Source: an uncultured virus (IMG/VR IMGVR_UViG_3300046168_000024)
Taxonomy: Duplodnaviria; Heunggongvirae; Uroviricota; Caudoviricetes
Virus record (IMG/VR): IMGVR_UViG_3300046168_000024
DNA length: 20,000 bases
Direction: 5' to 3' (one strand)
Part shown: one piece after another, positions 2-20,000 of the stretch
How positions within the stretch are numbered: position 1 is the stretch's first letter
Layout: the number at the start of each line of letters is the position of its first letter
Translations under genes and position numbers: made by a program
The notes under the pieces: generated by a model
What the model was told of the DNA's origin: nothing
The model's input: the letters and a program-made list of their open reading frames with translations, nothing else
Database searches by the model: none

Positions 2-292
2 CTACTAGAAAAAGATTGTCTAGGTTTGAAAGAAGTTGCAGATTATAATAATATGCTAAGAAAAGGGTACAGTTTAAATGTGCAACATAAGTGGGCTATG
101 AGAGATTATTTAAATATTCCAATCAGTGTTCAACTCGGAATACCTTGGGACTGTTATACTCGTTTGATTGATTCTATTCCTATGCAATTTAGAAATGCAA
201 GATTAAATGAACAGATGTTGACAAAAGCGTCGAAACAGAAAGCAACGCTTGGAAAGTTATTACAAACAGGATTTAAACTAGGTAAACTTTAA
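2..292 (+). CDS. 5'-truncated hypothetical protein, last gene of a convergent transcription unit
   Basis: The frame is open from position 2 (LLEKDCLGLKEVAD...) to TAA at 290-292. It overlaps the 3' end of the minus-strand GT29-like gene by 15 nt. No recognisable motif. Confidence 0.65.
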   Translation, partial: LLEKDCLGLKEVADYNNMLRKGYSLNVQHKWAMRDYLNIPISVQLGIPWDCYTRLIDSIPMQFRNARLNEQMLTKASKQKATLGKLLQTGFKLGKL

Positions 293-928
293 TATCTCAT
301 TTTCAAGGTCTGACAAAATTTTCCACTCTATCAATCCCTGATTTTTCATATCAATTACAAGTTCTTTTTCTTTTTTGGAATGAATATTTACTTTTTGAGT
401 ATTGACTGGCATATGCCAACTCGAAGGATTATCTTCTCCTGTTTTGAAAGGCAACTTCTTAGAAAAGAAATCGAAACCTATCAAAGTTATACTTTTACAC
501 TCACACTTTAACAAGAAAAATAATATTGCCATAAATCCTTGTGATGGTCTCCATCCTACAGGTTTATTCGGCACAACTCCTAACTTATCATGAATATCTA
601 TTATTTCTTCATCAGAAAACATATCCGTATATTTAAAATCTTTAGGGAGTATAGTAGTCGAAGGTTTGTTCATATGAATACGACTACGATTAAAAAGAGT
701 AAGACAGTCAAAAAATTTTCTTGCATTTACACGAAGAAATCCTGTTACCCATATATCAGTTCTACTACCTAGACTACTTGTATAGTCATAAGGAGCTCCC
801 CTTCCAAAACGAACAACAGTATCAAAAGATTCTATATAATCTCCATACTCGTATTGTAGAATCTCTACTGAGTTTCCTACAAGTATTAGTGTTTTATTTT
901 TAGTAAGTTGTTGTAATGTTTTTTCCAT
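278..928 (-). CDS. GT29 (sialyltransferase-like) glycosyltransferase
   Basis: Sialylmotif L-like LILVGNS...YIESFDTVVRF...LGSRTD; motif S-like RPSQGFMAILFFLLKC..ITLIGFD; C-terminal SWH and H...E (motif III/VS-like). Confidence 0.75.
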   Translation of the reverse strand: MEKTLQQLTKNKTLILVGNSVEILQYEYGDYIESFDTVVRFGRGAPYDYTSSLGSRTDIWVTGFLRVNARKFFDCLTLFNRSRIHMNKPSTTILPKDFKYTDMFSDEEIIDIHDKLGVVPNKPVGWRPSQGFMAILFFLLKCECKSITLIGFDFFSKKLPFKTGEDNPSSWHMPVNTQKVNIHSKKEKELVIDMKNQGLIEWKILSDLENEILKFT

Positions 929-1554
929 TCGTTTGAGTAAAGTATATTATCATGTATGTCTTGCCACGGTCCACCATCTGTAAAGTGTATTGCTTTAGGA
1001 CTAGGAAAATTATAGTAATTTACCATAGCATTATATTCTGCTGGTAACTCACCAATTTCATCCGCCCACTCCATTTCGTGTAATTGTTTGCCAGTCCAAT
1101 AGTTAACTGACCTACTGGATAGTTGAAGACATTGTGCGTTATTAAAGTACATGAGAGATGACCAATACTTTTTTGGATATGACATATTTGCTTTGCCATT
1201 CATCTTCTCACTAGGTGTTGTTAGAAATTGAGGGTGTTTAACTACCCATACAGTTGGAGATTGAGAACTTTGTTTTACATAATCTTCGATTTCTTGTGGG
1301 TCACATCTCCACATAAAATCTCCATCACAAAAAAGACTGTGACCTGTCCAATCAGACAGTTTAGGAACGAGGAAACGAGTGAAAGCAAACTCTGTGCTCT
1401 CACCCTGGTACTTTCTTGAGTACATTCCTTCATCCTCTAATTTGCTTTTGATAAGAGGTATAATCTCGTGTTTTGTACTGAAGCTACGAATAGATTCAGC
1501 ACATACTTCAAATGCTTCAGGATATTCACTTTCATATCCTATGAAGATTTTCAC
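886..1554 (-). CDS. GT8-like nucleotide-diphospho-sugar transferase (CDI-like)
   Basis: MKIFIGY start, STEFAFTRFLVP, DxD motif (FCDGDF), YPKKYWSSLMYFN and IHFTDGGPW, all typical of the CDI-like GT-A family. Confidence 0.8.
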   Translation of the reverse strand: MKIFIGYESEYPEAFEVCAESIRSFSTKHEIIPLIKSKLEDEGMYSRKYQGESTEFAFTRFLVPKLSDWTGHSLFCDGDFMWRCDPQEIEDYVKQSSQSPTVWVVKHPQFLTTPSEKMNGKANMSYPKKYWSSLMYFNNAQCLQLSSRSVNYWTGKQLHEMEWADEIGELPAEYNAMVNYYNFPSPKAIHFTDGGPWQDIHDNILYSNEWKKHYNNLLKIKH

Positions 1555-5736: not shown

Positions 5737-5950
5737 TCATCTTCTCCAGCTCTACATAACCTCCAATCTTCTCTCCATCCACAATAATCTGTGGAAATGT
5801 TCGAGCTGTCGGGAATAGTGTTTTTACATCTGTTGCTTGAAACTCTTCTCCCATCATGTTATAAATTACTTCGTGTCCTTTGTTCGTTGCTAAGTTCTTA
5901 GCTTTGACACAGTAAGGACAGTTTGGTATACTATATATTTCTACTATCAT
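5729..5950 (-). CDS. dithiol glutaredoxin
   Basis: CPYC active site, RTFPQI and IGGY. Confidence 0.95.
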   Translation of the reverse strand: MIVEIYSIPNCPYCVKAKNLATNKGHEVIYNMMGEEFQATDVKTLFPTARTFPQIIVDGEKIGGYVELEKMIG

Positions 5951-6381
5951 TTCATTGTCTCCTCAATGAATTTTCCTATTGTGTTAATCTCTTGTTCTGA
6001 AAGCATACCTGCTTGAGCCCACATTGTAGAACTCATACTTCCGACTTCTCCTCTATTTTTATATGTATTGAGTCGGTCGATTATATACTCGGAACTTTGG
6101 CCTGCCAGTTTAGGAAATACTGCCATGCCTTGACCTTCGTTACCGTGACAAGCTGCACAACCTGCCCATAAACTTCTAATAGAACTAAATTCATCTGCAC
6201 TTGCAAGTTCTTTTTTCTTCTGTTCTATCTGTGCTGGTGTACCATGAATCTTTACATATTCTGCATAACACTCGCCTGTGCAAGAGTGTGCTCCTGAGTA
6301 TCCTTTATACTCTAGATTGTTATATGCTAAAGCTATGGTACATACCATAAATGTTACTATTGATAATACGTAAAACTTCAT
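5947..6381 (-). CDS. exported monoheme class I cytochrome c (c553/c4-like)
   Basis: Hydrophobic N-terminal signal/anchor, CAACH heme motif, FPKLAGQSSEYI, distal Met candidates (SMSSTMW) and C-terminal LSEQEI helix. Confidence 0.9.
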   Translation of the reverse strand: MKFYVLSIVTFMVCTIALAYNNLEYKGYSGAHSCTGECYAEYVKIHGTPAQIEQKKKELASADEFSSIRSLWAGCAACHGNEGQGMAVFPKLAGQSSEYIIDRLNTYKNRGEVGSMSSTMWAQAGMLSEQEINTIGKFIEETMK

Positions 6382-6958: not shown

Positions 6959-8760
6959 GATATATTATCTTCTTTAATTATCTCTATCTTTTCAAGCAAT
7001 GGATGAGTCCAACCGTGAGAAACTAAATATGTATTTAGGTTTTCTTCTTTCAGTAGGACTTCCACTACTTTTTCTTTTCCTTGTTCATCTAATGCTTGAT
7101 TAACTTCATCAAGAAAAAGAACATTGATTTGACTTCTACTAATCGAAGTCATTAACTTTCTAATTGCGACTAGCGTTGCAATATTTACTCTTGCTAGCTC
7201 ACCTGAAGAAAGTGCTAGAATATCAATAATGTTTCCATTATCAGATACTTCTACATTTAATTTGTCGTTCTCTACAACAAAATTTATACTGAATCTACCA
7301 TCACTGAACTCTGCGAGATACTCATTAGTAAGTATTTCTAGTTCTTTGACAAGTGATTCTATTTTGTATGCAAGGAGACCGTTTGTGCTAAACGCCTTTT
7401 TAAGTATTTCAAGAACCGCAAGTTTGTTTTCTGAACTCTCAAGTCTAAGCTCGTGTGCGTCAAGTTGTTCTTGAAACTGCTGAGTTTGCTCTTGTATAAT
7501 TCCAATTCTTGTGTTGTGTCGTTCTCTTCTCTCATTCTCATCTACTACCGTCTGAATAGAGTCCCTAATAGCGGCAATCCTCTCGCGAAGCGTTTTAATC
7601 TTATTCCCCAACTCTTCTCCGTTGATAACTTGTGTAGGGAGTTTGTTGTCGATACTCCTGTAGAGATTTTCCCAATCTTCGATGTTTTTGGTTGCTGTCC
7701 TATGTATCTCATTATGTTCTTCTGCCTCTTTTAATTTTTCTCTATCTTTCTCTGCGAATTTTTCACATTGTTCCATTCTTTCTGTGTGTTCTTTTATTGA
7801 CATATTTACAAAGGTTTGGTTAATGTCTTGACCACAAGTAACACACTCTGCGTTTTCCATACCCGCTAGGGCTTGGTATTTTTCTAACATCTTTTCCTCA
7901 TGTATACCTTCTGACTTCCATGCTCCTAAACGAGTTAGGTGAGGAGCTGTATCTATGAGTTCTGTATGCTTTGCTAATAATCTTTTATTTTCGTGAAGGT
8001 CAATTGTTTTTAACTGTTCCTTCAGATTATTATTAGTATTTATATTTTTGTTCTTTTCCGAGATATTTTCAAACTCTATTTGTAAAGAACTTAAAGACTT
8101 TTCGTCTTCTTCTGACTGAAATGGTAAATCCATTTTTGTAAGTAGTGTCGTATCTTCCAAAAAATTATCTTCCAACCATTTCTCAATAGTTGAGATTTTG
8201 GCGTTGGTTACTGTAATATTACTTGAAGCTACTCGTACTGCCTCCTTGAAACTCTCAAAGTACGACACATATTCGTCTAGTTTTAAGAGGTCAATTAGGA
8301 ACTTTTTCCTGTTTGTATCTGTGGCAGTAAGAAACTGTAAAGATGCATTTGTATTCTGATATACTAACTGTGAGAAAGTCTTGAAGTCAATTCCAAGTAT
8401 TTCTCCCAAACTCTTATATGTATTAGAAGCAGTATGTGAACTTATATCCTCTCCATTCTTCGTTAGCTTACATTTAAGTGTAGACCTACGACTAACAGAA
8501 ATGCAATAAGAATCACTGTCAACACTAAACTCAAGAGATATATCGTATCCTTGATTAACATATCTATTAGCGATGTCTGCTTTTTTAACATTTTTACTAT
8601 TCTTATTAAATAAAACTTCTTCTAATACTAAAGGTATAGAAGATTTACCTACTCCGTTTGTTCCAACTAATTGTGTAAGTGTAGACTCGGATAAGTCTAT
8701 TTCGTTTCCTGTTCCATAAGAGAAACAGTTATCCCACTTCAGTTTTTGCAGAATAATCAT
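6943..8760 (-). CDS. SbcC/Rad50-like recombination ATPase (T5 D13-like)
   Basis: Walker A GTNGVGKS, coiled coil with CVTC zinc hook, LSSGE signature, Walker B LFLDE and VSH. Confidence 0.95.
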   Translation of the reverse strand: MIILQKLKWDNCFSYGTGNEIDLSESTLTQLVGTNGVGKSSIPLVLEEVLFNKNSKNVKKADIANRYVNQGYDISLEFSVDSDSYCISVSRRSTLKCKLTKNGEDISSHTASNTYKSLGEILGIDFKTFSQLVYQNTNASLQFLTATDTNRKKFLIDLLKLDEYVSYFESFKEAVRVASSNITVTNAKISTIEKWLEDNFLEDTTLLTKMDLPFQSEEDEKSLSSLQIEFENISEKNKNINTNNNLKEQLKTIDLHENKRLLAKHTELIDTAPHLTRLGAWKSEGIHEEKMLEKYQALAGMENAECVTCGQDINQTFVNMSIKEHTERMEQCEKFAEKDREKLKEAEEHNEIHRTATKNIEDWENLYRSIDNKLPTQVINGEELGNKIKTLRERIAAIRDSIQTVVDENERRERHNTRIGIIQEQTQQFQEQLDAHELRLESSENKLAVLEILKKAFSTNGLLAYKIESLVKELEILTNEYLAEFSDGRFSINFVVENDKLNVEVSDNGNIIDILALSSGELARVNIATLVAIRKLMTSISRSQINVLFLDEVNQALDEQGKEKVVEVLLKEENLNTYLVSHGWTHPLLEKIEIIKEDNISCLSS

Positions 8761-9680
8761 TAAACACTCCCATAATATTTCTTATTTTATCATCATCTAA
8801 TGATAGTATTTCTTTCAAGTAAATACCTAGTTCATCAGACATTGTCATTTCTGCGTGTAAATTTAAGGTTGCTTCAACCGTTCGTCTTACTACTTTCTTG
8901 TCTAGTAGTTCTGAGTTTTTAACTTTTGCTAAGTCTTGCACATCTCCTTCTAGTTCGTATATAGTATGGTGAAAGTCTGTTTGTACCATTTCATCGGGAC
9001 TATCAACAGTCTTACGAATAAGTTGTGGTAGTTCAAACTTGTGCCATGTCCAATCAAAATTATCATCAATAGTTAGATAACCTGTTTTTACTATATTTCT
9101 ATGAAAAGATGTAGTCATTGGACTTCCTGGGTACACAATATTTCGTTGAGTATTCTCGTGAGCATGTAAGTCTCCAGCAAAGACAGTTTTAAACTTATCA
9201 AATCTTTCTAAATCTACTTCTGGTACTAACATGAGGTGGTATCTCTCCACGAACATGAGTAAATAATAGTCCGCATCAATCGTTTCTATACTATTCTTTT
9301 TATGCAAATCAGCATAAGGCAGTATCGCCCAGTCATCCTCATAGTATGTTTCTGTAATTACTTCTACTAGAGCCGTTCAGTCTGTAGTTGCTTTCTTTAA
9401 GTTAGTAAAGAAAGTCTTGTTTTTCCTAGTAGCTTCGTGATTTCCGTCATAAATAATAGTAGGATTCGTTACTTCCTCTTTTACAAATCAAAGTAAAGAG
9501 TAAGTTCATCCATAGAAGGGACTCGATCAAACAAGTCCCCTCCAATGATATGTAACTTACATCATGTTTGTTATAGCTCCTGTACTTGTTCAAAGAACAT
9601 CTGATACCTGGACAGCCCATCGGTACTGGTACATTCTTTTGTCCGAGTTTTATATGCCAGTCTGCTGTAAATAAAATCAT
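8729..9680 (-). CDS. SbcD/Mre11-like nuclease (T5 D12-like), broken by several indels in this sequence
   Basis: The motifs ADWH, IIGGDLFD, DGNHE, THVRGEIPPHV, GDLH and YPGSP are all present but lie in different reading frames between about 9220 and 9625. Confidence 0.9.
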
Positions 9681-10222
9681 GCTACGAAGTCATCTCCTGG
9701 TGTCCATTCACAACCTGTGAGACCACCTGCTTTTAATGCTTGTAAAGTTCTAAGAACTTCATTTGCATTTCTGCCTGTGTTTAGAGCGTTAACAGATACA
9801 TGCTGTATTATTCCTTCTGGGTCAAGTATGTAGGTTGTTCTATAAGGAACACCTTCATCACTTACAATTCCTAAAGCTGTTGCAAGATTGTTATTGCAGT
9901 CAGCTAAAAGTGCATGTTCTACACCATAAAGAGGTGCATGTTCATCACCTGTTTTCCACTCCCATTTACAATATTCGTTATCAGGACTTATGCCATAAAC
10001 TTCATCAGTTTCTGCCATTAAGCTATCCATACCTACTATCTCAGTAGGGCAAATAAATGTAAAGTCTTTTGGGTAAAAGTAAATTACAGACCAGTCAGAT
10101 AAATCCCAACTATTAACTTTAATAAAGTCATGGTCTGCGTCTTTCCAATCTTCGTTAAAACTCATGTTACCACTTACACCGTTAAGTGTAAACTCTGGAA
10201 ATTTATCTCCTACTCCAATCAT
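9677..10222 (-). CDS. ahpC: 2-Cys peroxiredoxin (AhpC/Prx1)
   Basis: FYPKDFTFICPTE peroxidatic motif, GRN..EVLR.LQAL and C-terminal GCEW.PG. Confidence 0.93.
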   Translation of the reverse strand: MIGVGDKFPEFTLNGVSGNMSFNEDWKDADHDFIKVNSWDLSDWSVIYFYPKDFTFICPTEIVGMDSLMAETDEVYGISPDNEYCKWEWKTGDEHAPLYGVEHALLADCNNNLATALGIVSDEGVPYRTTYILDPEGIIQHVSVNALNTGRNANEVLRTLQALKAGGLTGCEWTPGDDFVA

Positions 10223-11279: not shown

Positions 11280-12176
11280 TTATTTTTCTGAACTCTCATT
11301 CTGCTTATTCTCTAAGATTTTATCAGCATCCTCAGGTGCGATTGTCGCATGAACACCCATATGTGCCATGTCAATCATTCTACCTTCAAAGATGTAGCTG
11401 CCAGAATGTGTAAGTTCAATCATTGGTAATGCCCATATGTCAATACCAATCTTTCTACAATACTCGGAGAACATGTAATCTTCACTTAGATATCTGTTCT
11501 GCTCGTTAATTATACAGTCAAAAAAAGCGTGTATTGTTTCGTCTCTTTGAAAATCTCCTTCACGAATGTGGTCGGGAGTATATTCTAACTCGGGGTATGC
11601 GTCTGCATATTCCTTAAATACTGACTTTTCTATCATCATAAATCCAGTTGCTCCCTCTTTGATCTTTACAGGTTCAAAGACAGGTGCTTTGCCATCTGGA
11701 TATTCCTCAGGCAGTGGATTAAATACCATATCTCCAGCTACTTTAGATAGTAGAGAAGGGTTTTGTTTTATATGCTCGTGTCCTTGTTCTGCAACATGCA
11801 AAACTTTTTCCCAAGCAATAGTTTTCTTTGGGTATAAACCAGTTAATATTCTTATGTCATCTGTAGTTGCCATAATGTGAGCCATATACATTAAATCCAT
11901 AGCTCTCCATGAAATGTCACTATCAATGAACATTAAGTGAGTAGCGTCAGATTTAAGAAAATTTGCAACACAATAGTTTCTAGCTCTAGTAATCAAAGAT
12001 TCATTAAATAAATAATAAATCTGTGTACTTATACCATGATTCATAAATGTACCAGTGGTATCCATAAGAGACTTAGTGTATAACCCATGACACATACCGC
12101 CATACATTGGAGTCGCAAACATTATGTTCATCTTCTGCATTTCAGGTATGTTTAGTTCAATTTTAGTTTCATTCAT
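11280..12176 (-). CDS. GT-A fold glycosyltransferase-like protein
   Basis: ATPMYGG, NESLITRARN, LMFIDSD (DxD), ATGFMMI, YLSEDY.F and LTH.G. Confidence 0.8.
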   Translation of the reverse strand: MNETKIELNIPEMQKMNIMFATPMYGGMCHGLYTKSLMDTTGTFMNHGISTQIYYLFNESLITRARNYCVANFLKSDATHLMFIDSDISWRAMDLMYMAHIMATTDDIRILTGLYPKKTIAWEKVLHVAEQGHEHIKQNPSLLSKVAGDMVFNPLPEEYPDGKAPVFEPVKIKEGATGFMMIEKSVFKEYADAYPELEYTPDHIREGDFQRDETIHAFFDCIINEQNRYLSEDYMFSEYCRKIGIDIWALPMIELTHSGSYIFEGRMIDMAHMGVHATIAPEDADKILENKQNESSEK

Positions 12177-13453
12177 AATACATTTACCTCGTATCCTTGT
12201 TTTATATAATAGCCCATTCTAGCACTTGCTTGTCGAGCTGCTGTTTTACCTTTTAGATTAAAGTCAACCACTACTGGTTGTTTCTTTCCATCTATTTTTC
12301 TTATTATCCTACCAATAAGCTGTGTGAGTAAGGGGTCGTTATTTACTGGTGTTCCCAACACTAAACAACTAAGCTCATTGATAGATATGCCTTCCGAGAA
12401 GATTGACTGTGTTCCAAATAAGATTTGTTTATCTTTTCTTATCATATCCATAGTCTCTTCTCTTTCAGCAAAATCCATATCCCCTGTTATTGAAACTGCT
12501 TTATCTCCTACTAGAGCTGCACAGTTTTTTAGAAATGCTACTCTATCTGATACAACAAGAACTTTATGTCCTTCTGCAGCGTAACGAGCAGCTGTCATTG
12601 CTACACCATGTACATACTCCGCATCTCTTGTTAAGTGATTTATGCGTTCTGCCCATGGAGTATAACTACCATCTAAAAATCTAATATCTGTTTTATAAAT
12701 ATCAATTTTAGGAACTAGATAGTTTTCTTTTGGCGGTTTCATCACATTGCTACCGAAATAATCACGGAAAACAACATGTCTGCCATCTTTTCTTTCAAGA
12801 GTTCCAGTAAGTCCTATCTTGTAACGACACGGCATTTCATCTATAATCCTCGTAAAGGTTGGACTACTAACATGATGCATTTCGTCTAATATAATTGTCC
12901 CGAACTCCTTTTTTATATCGTCCATTCGACGGTATAAAGTCTGAATATTCCCGCAGACGATAGGAGCATCTATATTACATTGACCACTACCTATTCTCCC
13001 TGCTGTATATCCAAAGCATTTCTTCACCTCTTTTTCCCACTGATTTCGTAGGTTAGTCGTGTGAGTAACTACTAGTGTTTTTTGACCTAGCTTTCCTGCG
13101 ATTGCTAAACCTGTAAATGTCTTTCCCCAACTTACCCAAGCGTTAATTATACTATTGTCTTGTACCTCATCATAAACCGCCTGTTGGCTTGGTCGTAAAT
13201 CAAACTTAAACTCTGGATGTTCGATTTCATTTACCACTCGTTTATCTACTATCTCGTAATCGGATGGGATTAAATCTTCTCTCCCCATTGGTAAAGACAC
13301 CAAACCCTCTCTAACATATCGAAATGTTTTGAACACGATAGGTGGGTCACTAGGTATTCGAGGAGCAATTGTATAAGTCAGTTCTTTTTCTAACTCATTA
13401 GTTTGTTCTTTATTAACGGATAAATATATTCTATTACTTAGTACTGCTTTCAC
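12173..13453 (-). CDS. SF2 DNA helicase (T5 D10-like)
   Basis: LRPSQ, WGKT, ILDEMHH, GLTGT, SEGI and QLIGRIIR. Confidence 0.95.
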   Translation of the reverse strand: MKAVLSNRIYLSVNKEQTNELEKELTYTIAPRIPSDPPIVFKTFRYVREGLVSLPMGREDLIPSDYEIVDKRVVNEIEHPEFKFDLRPSQQAVYDEVQDNSIINAWVSWGKTFTGLAIAGKLGQKTLVVTHTTNLRNQWEKEVKKCFGYTAGRIGSGQCNIDAPIVCGNIQTLYRRMDDIKKEFGTIILDEMHHVSSPTFTRIIDEMPCRYKIGLTGTLERKDGRHVVFRDYFGSNVMKPPKENYLVPKIDIYKTDIRFLDGSYTPWAERINHLTRDAEYVHGVAMTAARYAAEGHKVLVVSDRVAFLKNCAALVGDKAVSITGDMDFAEREETMDMIRKDKQILFGTQSIFSEGISINELSCLVLGTPVNNDPLLTQLIGRIIRKIDGKKQPVVVDFNLKGKTAARQASARMGYYIKQGYEVNVL

Positions 13454-13835
13454 TAATAAGTCTCCTTAATCCTGAACTAGAAAAAGAGTGCTGTCTATTA
13501 GTATAGTATACTTCATGCAATCCTTTTCCTGTAAAATGCTTGTCTGCCCAATCCTCTCCTATAAATCTCAAATGTATTTCTGTTGATTCTAGTAAATCTA
13601 TCAGACTTTGTTCTGTATCGTAAGGAATAATTTCATCTATGTACTTTATAGCTTGTAATTGCATATATCTTTCGTATACAGACTGAACAGGTTGATTTTT
13701 CTCCTGTCTATCTATACTCGGGTCAGTTTGTAATCCTACTATAAGATAATCGCAATTCTCTTTTGCCTCTTTCATCATTACTACATGACCTGCATGTAAT
13801 AAATCAAATGCTCCGCAAGTAAATCCTTTTATCAA
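13434..13835 (-). CDS. TagD-like (glycerol-3-phosphate) cytidylyltransferase family protein
   Basis: GAFDLLHAGH, LIVGL, ER, GEDW and R.HSFSSS. Likely start is TTG 13835, which overlaps the upstream TGA and follows AAGGA. Confidence 0.9.
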   Translation of the reverse strand: MIKGFTCGAFDLLHAGHVVMMKEAKENCDYLIVGLQTDPSIDRQEKNQPVQSVYERYMQLQAIKYIDEIIPYDTEQSLIDLLESTEIHLRFIGEDWADKHFTGKGLHEVYYTNRQHSFSSSGLRRLISESSTK

Positions 13836-15337
13836 CTTAGTTCCTTCATGTACTGCCAATCTGCAATTCTCCATTCTTTTTGTATTCTTGGGTGGTTGTT
13901 ATCCCAAGGACTGCTCCAGCCTGTCTTTTTCTTTCTGTCTATAATATGTTTTGGTAACATATCCCCCATAACTTCTCTAAGTAAGTATTTATATACTCCT
14001 GTGTCCCATCCAAATCTTTGTTTAAATTTTGTCATACCATCAAATTCATAACAATATCTAACAAAATTTTGACCTAAATATACAGGTCTACTTTCCATTC
14101 CAAACATTCCGCAGGTTTGGTCAGTTGCTAGTATATTCTGCTCGGATGTTATCATCAAATCACAAATCAACATATTGTTCCATTTATCGTCTGAAAACTG
14201 TATCTTAGGAAGCCATGGCTCTGATTTATAGTATTCTAATTTATGTTCACAATATCCTTCTATCCAATACTTATGATGATGTAAATATCCAGAGAACAGT
14301 TCATCTGCACTATCTCCTGTAATTATTACTTTACAACCATCTTTAGCAGCTTGTTCTGCTAGAAAGTATCTTGGTGCTCGTCTATTTCTATCTGACCAAG
14401 GGAATCTAGCATTATTTAGCCATCTTCTATCGTAGTCATATATTTTGTCTTGTTGTAGTACAACTACTTTATGTTTTACACCCCATTCTTTACAAGTTTG
14501 TGCAGCTAATTTAGCCTCTAATCTAAACCCATTATGGTCATTATATAGTCCTTTTGTGTTATCATAAGCACATATGTATACAGTAAGGTCTAAATCCATA
14601 TCTTTTACTACTGATAGAGCAAATGTACTATCAAATCCCCCACTCAAAAATAATCCTGTCTTTTGTTTATTACTTGCTATCTTTTGTATATTTGATATTA
14701 GTCTTGTTCTAAACTCTTCTTTATTAAACGGATTACTTTTTATTTTAAAATTATTCCAAAGATTCTTAAATATTATTTTATCTGTATTGAAATCAAATAT
14801 TACATACTCTCCAGCAGCTACTTTCATAACATCTTTGTAAGGACTCTCATGTCCTTGTAATAATGAGTTTATTACATATCCTTGCTTTGTTTTTGTATTT
14901 TCTTCTAAATTTGACAAGCTTCTTAGACTTGTAGTAACAGTAACATTTTTACCTTTTTTATGTATCCATAAAGGTTTGGCTCCAAAGTGGTCTCTACATA
15001 TAACTAATTTTCTTTTCTCTGGTTGATACCATGCTAAACTTCCATGCCAATCATTCCACTCTAAAAACTTAAATCCATATGTTTCTAGTCCATCAGCTAA
15101 GTACTTTGTATCATTCTGTATATTAGTATCATACATCTCGCCATTGAATACTAAATAATTATTCTTTTTGGTTTTATATGGTTGTAATTGTTTTTCTCCA
15201 TTGATATCTAGTAATGCGTGAGCCATAGCAATATCTTTGTTTTTCCACATAGACATTGCATCGGGACCACGAAACTCTTGTCGTTTCATCATCTCACCAC
15301 AATTTTCAGTATCTGTTGTTACTACGAATCCGCACAT
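13832..15337 (-). CDS. asparagine synthase (glutamine-hydrolysing)-like amidotransferase
   Basis: N-terminal MCG nucleophile, RGPD, FNGEMY, RDHFGAKPL, PP-loop LSGGFDS, TGDSADELFSGY and KYLLR...RKKTGW. Confidence 0.92.
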   Translation of the reverse strand: MCGFVVTTDTENCGEMMKRQEFRGPDAMSMWKNKDIAMAHALLDINGEKQLQPYKTKKNNYLVFNGEMYDTNIQNDTKYLADGLETYGFKFLEWNDWHGSLAWYQPEKRKLVICRDHFGAKPLWIHKKGKNVTVTTSLRSLSNLEENTKTKQGYVINSLLQGHESPYKDVMKVAAGEYVIFDFNTDKIIFKNLWNNFKIKSNPFNKEEFRTRLISNIQKIASNKQKTGLFLSGGFDSTFALSVVKDMDLDLTVYICAYDNTKGLYNDHNGFRLEAKLAAQTCKEWGVKHKVVVLQQDKIYDYDRRWLNNARFPWSDRNRRAPRYFLAEQAAKDGCKVIITGDSADELFSGYLHHHKYWIEGYCEHKLEYYKSEPWLPKIQFSDDKWNNMLICDLMITSEQNILATDQTCGMFGMESRPVYLGQNFVRYCYEFDGMTKFKQRFGWDTGVYKYLLREVMGDMLPKHIIDRKKKTGWSSPWDNNHPRIQKEWRIADWQYMKELS

Positions 15338-15459: not shown

Positions 15460-15695
15460 TCTACTACTTTAAACCCTTGTATTGAATCAACTCGTAAGTC
15501 TTCCCATTTTTTAAATTCTACATCATAACATATCACAGTATCTCCACTCTGATTTTTTATATGATTAGGAACTTCCATATATTTCTCATTTAAAGTATAC
15601 TCTCTATCGTAAACTTTTCCTGATTTTAAACTTTCAAATTCAATTAATACTATATTTGTTGCTAATTTATCTCTTAATTTTTCGATGTCAACCAT
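15456..15695 (-). CDS. small SH3/Sm-like beta-barrel protein (WYL_2/DUF2693-like)
   Basis: Pattern L...IVLIEF....G...R.YTL...CYDVEFKKWEDLRVDSI. Confidence 0.65.
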   Translation of the reverse strand: MVDIEKLRDKLATNIVLIEFESLKSGKVYDREYTLNEKYMEVPNHIKNQSGDTVICYDVEFKKWEDLRVDSIQGFKVVE

Positions 15696-15871
15696 CTCCA
15701 TGCCCTCTCGTGATAGACATATGCTACTATTTTAATAACACTGTCTGCTACAGCTATACTAGCTGCTAGTTCATAACTTCCTGTTACAGTTACTGCAATT
15801 ATTGCAGTTACACTCATAGCTATAATACGCCATGATAGTGCTTTGTACCAGTCTCTTTCTATCTTATCCAT
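15674..15871 (-). CDS. DUF2061 small membrane protein
   Basis: KALSWRI...VTGS..LA.SIA..D..IK...Y.YHERAW signature. Confidence 0.85.
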   Translation of the reverse strand: MDKIERDWYKALSWRIIAMSVTAIIAVTVTGSYELAASIAVADSVIKIVAYVYHERAWRWLTSKN

Positions 15872-16350: not shown

Positions 16351-16819
16351 ATTTTTCTCCATGTATCTTTTTTCTTTTCTTCACAATACTCCCATATCTT
16401 CCACGGAATACCCTTTTGATATAGTACTCCTGCCCAGCTACTACCTTTCATAGGAGGTCTTGCCTCTACAAAAGGAATGGCACATCTTTTAGCCATACTA
16501 CTGTTGCTATATCTTTCTTTTCTACTTTGCGAATCTTATGGTATTTTAGTGGTGTTGTCTTTGTCTTTTCATCATACCAATAAACTCCATCGCTGTCTAT
16601 AAAATGTTTCCCCCTGTGTTTCATCATACCTACTTCATTATCTACTTGATATCGAAGTGGATATACACTTTTCATTGGTGTCTGTAATCTTCTCATACCA
16701 ATAGTTTTACCACTCATGTTTTTATCATCAACTATTTGGTCACCAATAAGCACTAGCCCATCAATTTCTTCTGGCTCTTCTGAAAGTACATAGATTGGAA
16801 ACTTAATTTTTCGGTTCAT
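16347..16819 (-). CDS. T5-like conserved hypothetical protein, single frameshift
   Basis: KFPIYVL...VDDKNMSG.TIG.RRLQTP...FIDSDG. A frame change near 16470-16476 continues FVEARPP...WAGVLY..GIPW.IWEYCEEKKKDTWRKI* to TGA at 16347. Confidence 0.8.
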
Positions 16820-17297
16820 AATACATATATTTTCTTGCAAAATTACTTGCTAAATCTTTATAAGGCATATCAAAACAAGATAGTTTAAATAATACTCTTT
16901 CATTGGCTAGTGGAGCGACTCGATGCTCTTTACTTGTATCTACAATCGCCATCTCATACTTGTAAGACTTATCTCTAAATTCTATAGGGTCATCCCCACT
17001 CATCTTCCATATTATTGCTGATTTTGTACCTTTGTCTACATGCCAGTCTAAACGAGTTGTTGGCGATAAGAATATAAATTTCATATTAAATCTACCCTTT
17101 ATACCAAACATTCCAACAAACTCTCCTTCAAGTAAAGCATTACTCCAAGGAGCATAATGATACCCATGTATCTTTTTACCTTTGAAATAAAACTCTTTTC
17201 TTGGCAAAGTATATGCTACTTCTTCTAAGTATTCTTTGTCTAATGCATAATTTATATGTAAACAATTAGGCGGTATTTTGTCTAATTTTTGTCGCAC
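16803..17297 (-). CDS. 2OG-Fe(II)/cupin-like dioxygenase
   Basis: HxD...H triad (WHVD ... EHRV) followed by NERVLFKLS. Confidence 0.65.
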   Translation of the reverse strand: MRQKLDKIPPNCLHINYALDKEYLEEVAYTLPRKEFYFKGKKIHGYHYAPWSNALLEGEFVGMFGIKGRFNMKFIFLSPTTRLDWHVDKGTKSAIIWKMSGDDPIEFRDKSYKYEMAIVDTSKEHRVAPLANERVLFKLSCFDMPYKDLASNFARKYMYYEPKN

Positions 17298-18027
17298 TTA
17301 TATCCTCTATATCTTTACTAAAATGTTCTTGTTCAATAACATACCCAACCTTTCTTCCATAAGTAATATTTACTATATTTGGAACAGATTTAATTTGTAC
17401 TATACCAGCTAAATGTGCTAGTTTCTTTTTTAATTTTTTCTCTATCTCATATGCAGAATATGGATTATTTTCGTCCCATTCCATACTTCGAATCTGCACT
17501 TCTACTTGTGGCTCTTTCTCTAGACATCTTTCTAGTAATGCCTCGTGTCCTTCATGCCATGGTTGCCACCTACCTAGCATTTGTACTGTGGGAGTTTCAT
17601 CTTTCCATATTCTATGTCCTATACTCCAACATACATCAACAGGGTCATCATCATCCCACTCATGTATATCGTAATCATACTCCGTCCACTCAGGCCACTC
17701 AAATATTTTGTTAGTATCTTCATACTTACTCTCTACTACTCCTGACATAAATATAGTCAGGTCAGCATCAAACTGCTCTCTACCTGACTTGAATGGACAT
17801 ATAAAATCTACTAATGCAATTTTACCACTATCTGATACTGCATTTGCTTTATCCAACATTCTTCTAAACTGTCTCCAACGACCCTGTTCTGAGAAATCCC
17901 AGTCATCGGCTTCGTGGCGCATTTGGTCTGCGTTTATATGAACAACTCTGTCAGTCATAATCTTCTTTATATTCTTACAAAGAGTTGTTTTACCTGCTCC
18001 AGATTGTCCAAAAATTAATACTTTCAC
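17266..18027 (-). CDS. adenylylsulfate (APS) kinase-like P-loop domain fused to an HxGH nucleotidyltransferase domain
   Basis: N-terminal GQSGAGKTT, NADQMR, DFSEQGR and VDFICP; C-terminal GRWQPWHEGH, NPYS and ISATKIR. Confidence 0.85.
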   Translation of the reverse strand: MKVLIFGQSGAGKTTLCKNIKKIMTDRVVHINADQMRHEADDWDFSEQGRWRQFRRMLDKANAVSDSGKIALVDFICPFKSGREQFDADLTIFMSGVVESKYEDTNKIFEWPEWTEYDYDIHEWDDDDPVDVCWSIGHRIWKDETPTVQMLGRWQPWHEGHEALLERCLEKEPQVEVQIRSMEWDENNPYSAYEIEKKLKKKLAHLAGIVQIKSVPNIVNITYGRKVGYVIEQEHFSKDIEDISATKIRQNTA

Positions 18028-18766
18028 TTCAATAAATCCTTATAATTTTTTCCTACTTTTACTTTCAACCATGCATTTTCTGCTGTTTGTTTTGCTGCCT
18101 TGTACTCTATACATTTAGCACACTTACCGCAAGGCAACCATCTTTTATCTTTTTTACTTGTACTGGTTGCATACAAGTCCATGCATAATCTACTAGGACA
18201 GGATATTTTCTCATAATAAATGAGTATATCTCTGACTTTGTATTATGCTCAAATGGAAATAACATTAGGGGTGTACCTAATTTCTTTTCCCACTGCAACC
18301 CATGTATTTCCCACTCTTGATTTTTTATCATTTCTACATTTCTTTGTACATTTTTTAACATACCTCTTTGTTGTCCACTATCATCAGTGTTCGTTCCAAA
18401 TACAACATATTCTATAGCCCACTGTGGGTTTCCTACTATTAGTTTTACTACATTATCAATGTTTAAAAACCCTGCAGGTATGTTTATAGATTTCATAGGT
18501 ATTGAATTAGTACTCAATACAAATGGCACTTTAAAATAGTCTGCTGACTTTCTAGCAGCAAGAACTAAGTTATGTGCTCCAGGCACTTCTGCAATTAAAT
18601 CTGTCCAAACAATAGGCTTTTTACCTGTATCTATTGCCCATGCCAAAGCTGCTTGGCTTTCTATTCCACCACCGTGAGGTATAATAGTATCTATATTCTC
18701 AAAATCAGCTACGCCCTCGCCTTTATGCTGTCTATCCTCGAAATCTAAGTAAGTCTTAGGCTCCAT
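18024..18766 (-). CDS. QueC-like PP-loop ATPase, single frameshift
   Basis: PP-loop variant HGGGIES, FGTNTDD, PF...TKSEI and WTC. One extra base in the 18150-18155 homopolymer restores WLPCGKCAKCIEY and a TGA at 18024 overlapping the next GTG. Confidence 0.75.
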
Positions 18767-19415
18767 AATAAAAATCCTCAAAATCTTTTTTGTAATACTC
18801 GTATATTAACTCTTTGTTTTTATCTGTCCATTCATAAGGTCTGCTTTGACTTACATTCTTTCTAGCTTCTTTTATCTTTAATTCTTTCCAAATAGTTTTA
18901 TCTTCTAACTTATGAACTTCTACTCCTGGTCTTATCCATTGCCATTGTGGTTTCATAATTATACTTGGGTCAAACGATGGTTTCATTAGATATAATTCAT
19001 ACAATGCATCTTTATCATCTATACACTTGTTCCACTTACCCTCTTGCATACAAGCAATAGCGTAAGGAACCCAATCTTTAAAAGGTGTATCTACCAATTC
19101 AATATCTGATAGATGATTCCATGCACTACGAAACTTAGTATATGGGTGGCGTACTTGTGTAACATATTTCCAATCAGGATATTGTAAGGCATACTGGTCG
19201 TAAGTTGCATGCATATTCATAGTATACATTTTATAGGGTGGATGATTTCTCCAACCTCTTATATAATGAGTTGCAAAGCCTTGGCTCCAAGTCTGTGTTC
19301 CCACTCGCATTTGTGGGTCAGTTGGAACACCATACTTACTTAAATACTGAGCTGTGATGGCAGTTCCGCCACACTTTGGTATATGTATAAAGATTGTTTT
19401 GTCACGACAAATCAT
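18756..19415 (-). CDS. PAPS-dependent sulfotransferase (Sulfotransfer_2-like)
   Basis: 5'-PSB motif FIHIPKCGGTAI, 3'-PB motif VRHPYTKFRSAW, PQ and C-terminal YKKDFEDFYY. Confidence 0.88.
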   Translation of the reverse strand: MICRDKTIFIHIPKCGGTAITAQYLSKYGVPTDPQMRVGTQTWSQGFATHYIRGWRNHPPYKMYTMNMHATYDQYALQYPDWKYVTQVRHPYTKFRSAWNHLSDIELVDTPFKDWVPYAIACMQEGKWNKCIDDKDALYELYLMKPSFDPSIIMKPQWQWIRPGVEVHKLEDKTIWKELKIKEARKNVSQSRPYEWTDKNKELIYEYYKKDFEDFYYGA

Positions 19416-20000
19416 AGAGCTTTTCAAACTTTCCTAAGCTATAATCATCAGCTACATCAAAGTCACATCCAATCGGGGTTCCTGGCACAGAAAGACCACG
19501 GTCTCTCTGTATAAATTCTTTCAGTTTTGCACTATATAATTCTACTTCATCAAGAGGAACTTCTGCTAACACAGAGTCATGAACAAGTGCAAATATCTTT
19601 GACTTCATTCCTGTCTTGACTATATACTTCTGCATCTCTATCGCTCCGAGTAAGTTTACATCACTTGCTACGGATTGAACGAGAGCATTTACACCACTTC
19701 TTACTTCATGTGATGCAATACCTTTGTCTTGTGAGAATACATTTGGTAGTCTTCTCTTTCTGCCGAAATGACTGTATATAAAGCCATTCGCTTGTATAAA
19801 TTTCTGTGTGTTATTGAGCCACCCTTTTAGTTTAGGGAAAGCTTCGAAGTAATCATCAATAGTATGTTTAGCTTCTGCAGGACTAAAGTATTTACCTGAA
19901 TCCTTGGTAACCTGTTCACTGATTTTTGCAGGGCCAGCTCCATACATTATACCGAATGTAACTGCCTTTGCTTGTTGTCTTTCTGCTGTGTAGTGTTCTG
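19402..20000 (-). CDS. polA: family A DNA polymerase, C-terminal part
   Basis: Frame is open to the window edge; motif B RQQAKAVTFGIMYG, FGRKRR, NALVQS.ASD and motif C VHDS. Confidence 0.97.
   Translation of the reverse strand, partial: EHYTAERQQAKAVTFGIMYGAGPAKISEQVTKDSGKYFSPAEAKHTIDDYFEAFPKLKGWLNNTQKFIQANGFIYSHFGRKRRLPNVFSQDKGIASHEVRSGVNALVQSVASDVNLLGAIEMQKYIVKTGMKSKIFALVHDSVLAEVPLDEVELYSAKLKEFIQRDRGLSVPGTPIGCDFDVADDYSLGKFEKLYDLS

Follow-up and report, generated by a model that had tools for sequence, protein, structure and literature searches.

Can a phage, with one protein of 253 amino acids (aa), carry sulfate through both steps of its activation to 3′-phosphoadenosine 5′-phosphosulfate (PAPS)? 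A gene at positions 17266..18027 (minus strand) raises this question in a 20,000-nucleotide stretch of DNA, referred to here as the window, from an uncultured virus of the Caudoviricetes (IMG/VR record IMGVR_UViG_3300046168_000024). The gene begins with GTG, ends with a stop codon at 17266-17268, and encodes a fusion of a miniature domain resembling adenosine 5′-phosphosulfate (APS) kinases with a miniature HxGH nucleotidyltransferase domain. We conclude that this fusion is probably a compact PAPS synthase that works in two steps, the first of them catalyzed by a new kind of ATP sulfurylase derived from nicotinamide mononucleotide adenylyltransferases (NMNATs). This conclusion stems from comparative genomics, that is, from gene linkage, gene fusion, and phyletic pattern, and not from any likeness of the small domain to the ATP sulfurylase Sat.

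To our knowledge, sulfate-activating enzymes come in two designs, Sat and CysDN. CysD is a PP-loop protein with a GTPase partner and is unrelated in design to the small domain described here. As judged from titles and the opening lines of abstracts, we found in the literature no description of the fusion or of its small domain as a sulfurylase, and no paper pairing the marine bacteria of the SAR86 group with a sulfotransferase.

In the mechanism that we propose, the small domain would transfer AMP from ATP to sulfate, yielding APS and pyrophosphate, and the lid-less APS kinase would phosphorylate the 3′-OH of APS with a second ATP to yield PAPS. The kinase step would pull the unfavorable first step forward, and the phage would spend the PAPS on its own sulfotransferase, most likely sulfating a glycan. 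The obligatory pairing of the two domains fits the unfavorable equilibrium of the APS-forming reaction, an equilibrium also noted in PMC8528679.

A conserved family of two-domain proteins

Of 4478 candidates in a family search, 3827 proteins scored E ≤ 0.001, and an alignment of 30 relatives (41-93% identity to the window protein) contains 50 invariant columns spread across both domains; the fusion gene is therefore no chance open reading frame (ORF). Most of the 120 relatives listed are 250-290 aa long, and four are 150-241 aa. The residues invariant in 30 of 30 sequences include, in the kinase half, G7, G12, K13, N32, D34, R37, the stretch D42-W-D-F-S46, R50, R52, Q53, and R56, and further along T105, N106, and F109. 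In the small domain they include G152, R153, Q155, P156, H158, G160, H161, R180, N188, P189, G224, and R225, together with the C-terminal signature S244, T246, and R249. The invariant residues R180, R225, and K171 would be candidates for lining an anion pocket. An AlphaFold model of the whole protein has a predicted local distance difference test score (pLDDT) of 90.1 and a predicted template modeling score (pTM) of 0.86.

The full fusion is also encoded in 12 records of cultured phages (the Xylella phages Sano, Salvo, and Bacata, and phages of Stenotrophomonas, Xanthomonas, and Clavibacter), in which it is annotated as "kinase," "hypothetical," or "adenylylsulfate kinase"; three records of Ralstonia jumbo phages match the kinase part only. 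The stretch upstream of the fusion in Salvo (L001, 6647-7677) encodes a NADAR-domain protein (E = 3e-25), two genes upstream, and a 192-aa ORF with a sub-threshold match to Sulfotransfer_4 (20.1 versus 22.8 bits).

The kinase half

The N-terminal half of the protein (residues 1-141; 17605..18027, minus strand) is a lid-less relative of the APS kinases. Residues 3-86 match the Pfam family APS_kinase, PF01583 (E = 1.8e-11; 44.7 bits against a cutoff of 21.1), and a profile of the family retrieves 2yvu (E = 6.8e-11) and many other APS kinases from the PDB. A Foldseek search with the whole model likewise recovers the APS kinases 7yq1, 8a8h, and 5cb8 at E values of about 1e-5 (7yq1_C, E = 7.8e-6, with a root mean square deviation [rmsd] of 1.7 over 101 columns; 8a8h_A, template modeling score [TM] of 0.74 by target; 5cb8_A, TM of 0.68). 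The top rows of that search, to T4 polynucleotide kinase, were set aside (rmsd of ~19 Å, TM of 0.3).

The Walker A P-loop, GxxGxGK(S/T), is present as G7-QSGAG-K13-T14 (17986-18009, minus strand). In alignment with the P. chrysogenum APS kinase (1d6j), the fusion keeps the P-loop lysine (K13) and the equivalents of D63 (D34), R66 (R37), F75-S76 (F45-S46), and R80 (R50), while Q53 replaces N83 and N32 replaces D61. We take the equivalents of D63, R66, F75-S76, R80, and N83 to be the residues that contact APS. In place of the canonical DGDxxR motif stands N32-A-D34-x-x-R37 (17917-17934, minus strand), in which the second Asp and the Arg are retained.

The small C-terminal domain

Residues 142-253 (112 aa; 17269..17604, minus strand) form a minimal nucleotidyltransferase of the HIGH superfamily, to which we would assign the ATP sulfurylase step. 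Two motifs are evident in the translation: HEGH (H158-H161; 17545-17556, minus strand), set within GRWQPWHEGH (G152-H161), and ISATKIR (I243-R249; 17281-17301, minus strand). The catalytic signatures of the superfamily, H158xGH161 and S244xT246xxR249, are invariant in 30 of 30 relatives, which argues for an active enzyme. The HxxH nucleotide-binding motif of Sat is thus present as the invariant H158-E-G-H161, and the ATP sulfurylase step of the human PAPS synthases (PAPSS) likewise uses an HNGH motif (PMC11697783).

Models of NMNATs and cytidylyltransferases match the small domain weakly, all below their cutoffs (NF002243, E = 3.7e-5, 23.4 versus 127 bits; PF01467, 17.1 versus 21 bits; TIGR01527, 18.7 versus 181.2 bits). 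Because the Foldseek results for the whole protein were dominated by the kinase half, we modeled the small domain alone (pLDDT of 90.5); phosphopantetheine adenylyltransferases (PPATs) and NadM were its top Foldseek matches, at E values of ~3e-4 (3.2e-4 for PPAT 3pxu). In an exhaustive comparison with VIA-align, the Thermus ATP sulfurylase 1v47_B aligned over 110 of the 112 residues with a Z score of 8.6, and other sulfurylases scored 5.2-6.4. The modeling indicates that the small domain is the minimal core of a HIGH nucleotidyltransferase of the NMNAT branch from which a middle part of ~50 residues, present in NMNATs, is missing. Structure alone cannot tell which acceptor such a predicted enzyme would adenylylate.

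Sulfotransferases and glycan-tailoring genes in phage genomes

Two genes upstream of the fusion gene, the window encodes a sulfotransferase of the Sulfotransfer_2 type (18756..19427, minus strand) with the sequence IPKCGGT in its PAPS-binding loop. It narrowly passes the Pfam cutoff (PF03567, E = 9.7e-5; 23.0 versus 22 bits), its ortholog in locus L005 scores 38 bits (E = 2.7e-9), and it is likely the consumer of the product of the fusion protein. A sequence-only reading of the window had described a 253-aa fusion of an APS-kinase-like domain with a domain of about 110 aa bearing HxGH and ISATKIR motifs, with a sulfotransferase two genes away; both descriptions are borne out. Its further proposal, that this one protein makes PAPS with a minimal ATP sulfurylase, is in our judgment probably correct, as the best explanation of the sulfotransferase neighbors, a CysQ-like gene, the triple fusions, and the distribution of Sat and CysD set out below.

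Among 80 viral loci that we retrieved, the fusion gene was called in 79; their neighboring genes were clustered, and the recurrent ones were annotated. A sulfotransferase lies within 6 kb of the gene in 25 of the 79 loci: Sulfotransfer_3/1 in 13, often directly upstream, Sulfotransfer_2 in 5, and a Stf0-like family in 7, this last assignment being the weakest link in the count. For background, a Sulfotransfer_3-type query matches 10 of the 50,697 records in the phage collection. Two P-loop-like neighbor clusters (c63 and c46) showed no tie to sulfotransferases and were left out of the counts. The other frequent neighbors are glycosyltransferases, epimerases, UDP-glucose dehydrogenase, FkbM methyltransferases, cupin/2-oxoglutarate oxygenases, MazG, S-adenosylmethionine synthetase, and DUF2061 (13 loci). 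The phage neighborhood is a glycan-tailoring setting.

Linkage extends to fusion in three proteins (P0122-P0124; 470-497 aa) in which an N-terminal domain of ~210 aa precedes the kinase and the small domain. In an Atlas look-up, this domain falls with Stf0/Sulfotransfer_3 clusters, both in its features (0.94-0.97) and in its structure (TM of ~0.7), and one row reaches the threshold for PF09037. Comparison with Sulfotransfer_3-type phage proteins by hhalign gave a probability of 54% over only 31 columns, and a profile search of the PDB returned nothing relevant for this part. We identify it as a sulfotransferase because of the Atlas look-up, weak Pfam hints, and a link to cluster c54 (94%). Such triple fusions would be a whole unit for making and using PAPS in one chain.

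SAR86 and other cellular genomes

The family is not confined to phages: 571 of 600 scanned stretches of a species-genome collection encode relatives, and of the best 80 loci most are from SAR86, with others labeled Pelagibacteraceae and SAR116. SAR86 encodes the kinase (136 aa) and the transferase (about 129 aa) as separate genes that overlap by ATGTTTGA, often in an operon of sulfotransferase, kinase, and transferase. The two modules are therefore found together as a fusion in phages, as overlapping genes in SAR86, and joined to a sulfotransferase in the triple fusions. An Inositol_P gene, encoding a CysQ-like phosphatase of 3′-phosphoadenosine 5′-phosphate (PAP), follows the fusion at two loci (L092 and L099), and Sulfotransfer_1 genes precede it at two others (L090 and L091).

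We scanned five SAR86 genomes in detail, one of them a complete 1.33-Mb chromosome. All five encode APS_kinase, for which the module gene is the only match, and all five have strong Sulfotransfer_3 genes; none of the five has a match to the ATP-sulfurylase family PF01747, and none has PAPS_reduct (CysD/CysH) or AprA above cutoff. We then sampled 151 genomes of the SAR86 order, mostly drafts, and dropped three weak matches to the small domain. The small domain is strong in 70 of these genomes, Sulfotransfer_3 is present in 80, and the two co-occur in 67 (cross-table 67/3/13/68; Fisher P = 1.5e-25, a value that ignores shared ancestry and gaps in draft genomes). In at least 20 genomes, the same strand carries a sulfotransferase of 363-399 aa immediately upstream, at a distance that fits the kinase gene; this count rests on coordinates, and 31 sulfotransferase matches lie outside the listing from which it was made.

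Canonical ATP sulfurylases are scarce throughout this order. Sat occurs in 1 of the 70 genomes with the small domain (G012), which is the only Sat among the 151, and strong CysD-type matches occur in 4 of the 151, none of which has a strong small domain. Set against the small domain, the canonical enzymes show no significant association (1/69/4/77; P = 0.37), because they are so rare in that order. For SAR86, Dupont et al. (2012; PMC3358033) state that sulfate uptake and assimilatory reduction are lacking, which we count among the points in favor of a PAPS synthase. For SAR11, Smith et al. (2016; PMC5069961) report cysC, cysQ, and aprA in most strains, with cysQ in all seven, and their table gives cysD in HIMB59 only, cysN in HIMB59 and HTCC7211 only, and no cysH.

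A separate putative nucleotidyltransferase of SAR86 was also noted. In this 372-aa protein (G002:C1:523130-524245; L164:28-1146, minus strand), a complete CTP_transf_like domain (GRFNPIHSGH ... ISSTILR) makes up the C-terminal part and follows an N-terminal half assigned to no family; the protein occurs in 62 of the 151 genomes, with and without the module. Since the complete genome G002 has no NadD equivalog above cutoff, this protein may be an unrecognized SAR86 NMNAT; other genomes encode a 227-aa NadD-like ORF.

Relatives consisting of the kinase alone

Five gammaproteobacterial metagenome-assembled genomes (L103-L111) encode a kinase-only relative of 138-161 aa (at ~8001-8417 of these loci) with the same NAD...DWDFS motifs. 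Its neighbors are a BCCT transporter, a TPR-sulfotransferase of 690-740 aa, and a TonB receptor, the transporter standing between the kinase and the TPR-sulfotransferase. CysD- and CysH-like genes are found in all five of these genomes; Sat is found in none of them, nor is the small domain, for which the same query was positive in SAR86-order genomes.

Other genes of the window

The window is marine phage DNA of ~35% G+C, with nearly all genes on the minus strand, and its contents include a family-A DNA polymerase, a ribonucleotide reductase, an SbcC-like protein, a helicase, and many sugar-modifying genes. A QueC-like PP-loop ORF (18107..18781, minus strand) of 224 aa separates the sulfotransferase gene from the fusion gene. 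In the near-identical contig L003 (3946-4704) this ORF is intact at 252 aa, with a weak match to QueC (PF06508, E = 0.015). An alignment of the two DNAs shows that a 1-base difference in an A-run (A6 versus A7) shortens the window ORF, costing it a C-terminal CxxCxxC tail and a GTGA overlap with the start of the fusion gene; either a sequencing error or a genuine frameshift could account for it. On the other side, the fusion gene overlaps at its 3′ end with a 164-aa ORF (16803..17297, minus strand). This ORF belongs to cluster c36, whose downstream place is conserved in the lineage of the window (5 loci), and had no match in the family-model searches.

The window also encodes a small membrane protein of the DUF2061 family (15674..15871, minus strand; PF09834, E = 2e-17), a recurrent neighbor of the module. 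The DUF2061 proteins found beside the module are 65-71 aa long and occur in 13 of the 79 viral loci and in two SAR86 loci (L127 and L151, at ~8402-8617), where the gene stands between those for the kinase and the transferase. That DUF2061 could supply sulfate is a guess. A search for longer proteins containing fused forms of DUF2061 gave one uninformative match.

Glycan-type genes are dispersed among the replication genes of the window (278-1554, 11280-12176, and 13434-15337, minus strand). They encode a GT29 (sialyltransferase-like) protein, a GT8-like protein, another putative glycosyltransferase, a TagD/RfaE-like cytidylyltransferase, and an asparagine-synthase-like amidotransferase, and the GT8-like ORF belongs to the same family as a recurrent neighbor of the fusion gene in other loci. 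Two further ORFs are unusual cargo for a phage, as read from their translations: a putative cytochrome c-like ORF of 144 aa (5947-6381, minus strand), with a signal-like N terminus and a haem-binding-type CAACH motif, and a putative peroxiredoxin-like ORF of 181 aa (9677-10222, minus strand). The nearest virus record, G001, has no match to Sat or PAPS_reduct, which shows little in a 24.7-kb fragment (CheckV 23%).

Discussion

The simplest account of these data is that the small domain makes APS, because an intact adenylyl-transfer domain is paired with the kinase, beside users of PAPS and a PAP phosphatase, where the known ATP sulfurylases and APS reductase are not found, and because the kinase stands alone where CysD exists. 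We lean toward the broader view that the small domain represents a third class of ATP sulfurylase, one of independent origin that derives from NMNATs and is the smallest known; together with the lid-less kinase, it would allow phages, SAR86, and SAR11 to activate sulfate for no purpose but sulfation.

Several observations weigh against PAPS synthesis by this protein, and some of them concern the small domain. Its profile is nearest in the PDB to NMNAT 1f9a (E = 1.3e-7) and NadM 2qjt (E = 4.4e-7), with NadM 2qjo matching as well and PPAT much more weakly. The alignment to 1f9a has GRxQPxHxGH, an NPF motif, and the terminal SxTxxR in common. The 34 PDB sequences that this profile matches at E ≤ 10 include no ATP sulfurylase, nor do those found with phmmer, and when the whole family is searched against the PDB, sulfurylase entries match through their kinase domains only. 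The PF01747 model of Sat has no match to the window protein, and no ATP sulfurylase is among the Foldseek matches listed for the small domain. The VIA-align comparison ranks PPAT 4nah (Z = 10.4), NMNAT 1f9a (10.2), NadR (10.0), and NadM (9.9 and 9.5) above 1v47, so that the structure prediction places the domain nearer to PPAT and NMNAT than to Sat. Just before its HxxH motif, Sat carries QxRN, which binds sulfate or phosphate; this motif is absent as such from the small domain, where L-G-R-W-Q-P-W-H has an Arg and a Gln in the register of the NMNATs.

Points of the same kind attach to the kinase half and to the distribution of the module. The PF01583 match covers profile positions 5-92 of 152 only, the lid half being absent, and the NCBIfam model TIGR00455 scores 43.6 bits against an equivalog cutoff of 138.7. 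The first Asp of DGDxxR, D87 of human PAPSS1, is the invariant Asn N32. The D87A substitution abolishes the APS kinase activity of PAPSS1, and both D87 and D89 of its DGDN motif are required (PMC8528679), so that N32 truly sets this kinase apart from its canonical counterparts. Sat and the small domain occur together in G012. Of the SAR86-order genomes with Sulfotransfer_3, 13 lack the small domain, and 11 of these have no recognized ATP sulfurylase. A PnuC-type transporter of nicotinamide mononucleotide (NMN) or nicotinamide riboside lies ~6 kb away in five SAR86 loci, and Salvo and DLP6, the two of the 12 cultured-phage records examined, have no clear sulfotransferase near the fusion. The lack of sulfate transporters reported for SAR86 (Dupont et al., 2012; PMC3358033) also bears on where the sulfate inside the cell would come from.

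The affinities of the small domain invite a NadR-like role in NAD salvage, in which the P-loop half would phosphorylate nicotinamide riboside and the small domain would adenylylate NMN to form NAD+, for instance to replenish this cofactor in the course of an infection. An NMNAT-like or cytidylyltransferase activity was the alternative named in the sequence-only reading, which was right about ancestry, NMNAT/NadM and PPAT being the nearest relatives, and probably wrong about function. Besides the matches to 1f9a, 2qjt, and NadR given above, the NADAR gene of Salvo, the PnuC genes of SAR86, the want of a NadD equivalog above cutoff in G002, and the existence of phage NadR/NadM systems (PMC9503650) all speak for NAD salvage. 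The kinase half, however, matches APS kinases, and NadR entries match the transferase part only (E = 0.006-0.024). The transferase has 112 aa against the 168-181 aa of NMNATs, and its match to them is limited to roughly 60-70 residues at the start (positions 5-68 of a 168-residue chain) and the final SxTxxR. The module, moreover, tracks sulfotransferases and not housekeeping genes: only 70 of the 151 SAR86-order genomes have it, 67 of these 70 also have a sulfotransferase, and in the triple fusions the two share a chain. NadV/NAMPT is not among the annotated recurrent neighbors, and separate candidates for the NMNAT exist in the 372-aa CTP_transf_like protein (62 of 151 genomes) and, elsewhere, the 227-aa NadD-like ORF. 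We consider NAD salvage decidedly unlikely.

Sulfur metabolism could instead involve the kinase half only, turning APS into PAPS, while the small domain adenylylates some other acceptor or serves to regulate or scaffold. Fungal ATP sulfurylases carry a non-catalytic domain resembling APS kinase, and such domain pairs can therefore be regulatory. Kinase-only relatives do exist beside sulfotransferases, and no ATP sulfurylase matches the small domain in sequence; yet the kinase is alone in genomes with CysD (5 of 5), the two-part form occurs where Sat, CysD, and AprA were not found, and the HxGH and SxTxxR catalytic residues are invariant. This explanation, which also needs an unrecognized source of APS, we hold to be unlikely. 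The PPATs that head the structural matches of the small domain (3pxu, 3.2e-4 in Foldseek; 4nah, Z of 10.4) would also suit a pair of the coenzyme A (CoA) type, a phosphopantetheine adenylyltransferase with a dephospho-CoA 3′-kinase, which performs the same chemistry of adenylylation followed by 3′-phosphorylation. Since SAR86 has a canonical CoaD (190 bits versus a cutoff of 103) and CoaE (5 of 5 genomes), however, such a role is unlikely in the extreme; the linkage, too, is strongly to sulfotransferases and not to CoA-related genes, and the kinase matches APS kinase, with CoaE not among its matches.

As a compact PAPS synthase, the fusion would share with the metazoan enzymes PAPSS1 and PAPSS2 a single chain, the order of an N-terminal APS kinase and a C-terminal adenylyl-transfer domain, an HxGH motif (HNGH in PAPSS1; PMC11697783), and the proposed product. 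PAPSS1, however, is 623 aa long (PMC11697783), against 253 aa here. The adenylyl-transfer domain of the fusion, unlike that of PAPSS, is not of the Sat family, having no PF01747 match, no PUA-like domain, and no QxRN, and in its kinase the lid is missing and NAD stands where DGD would be. With CysC (PF01583, TIGR00455) the kinase shares the P-loop, the second Asp and the Arg of DGDxxR, the FS...R...RR pattern, an xFxxP segment, and the fold, but it is ~125-140 aa long, compared with 172-211 aa for most solved chains of APS kinases, and has an invariant Asn for the first Asp.

The best relatives of the small domain in both sequence and fold, the archaeal NMNATs and NadM, share with it GRxQPxHxGH, the NPF motif, and the terminal SxTxxR; the small domain differs in its length (112 versus 168-181 aa), in the loss of the middle segment, and in keeping company with sulfotransferases and not with NAD genes. 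It probably belongs to the same HIGH nucleotidyltransferase fold superfamily as Sat (PF01747; Z of 8.6 over 110 residues of 1v47) and is proposed to catalyze the same reaction, although the two have no detectable sequence relationship and the aligned range of the Sat catalytic domain spans 176 residues, compared with the 112 of the small domain.

If our interpretation is correct, a third, threefold smaller, NMNAT-derived design for sulfate activation would be a clear case of non-orthologous replacement, and a PAPS generator of 253 aa in one chain would be of practical use in enzymatic sulfation. The phage genes widely annotated as "kinase" or "cysC" would acquire a meaning, one that points to sulfated products made during infection. 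The interpretation would also explain the orphan "cysC" genes of SAR86 and SAR11 and many of the "cysC" auxiliary genes in viromes, and it would change the reading of sulfur biology in some very abundant bacteria of the ocean.

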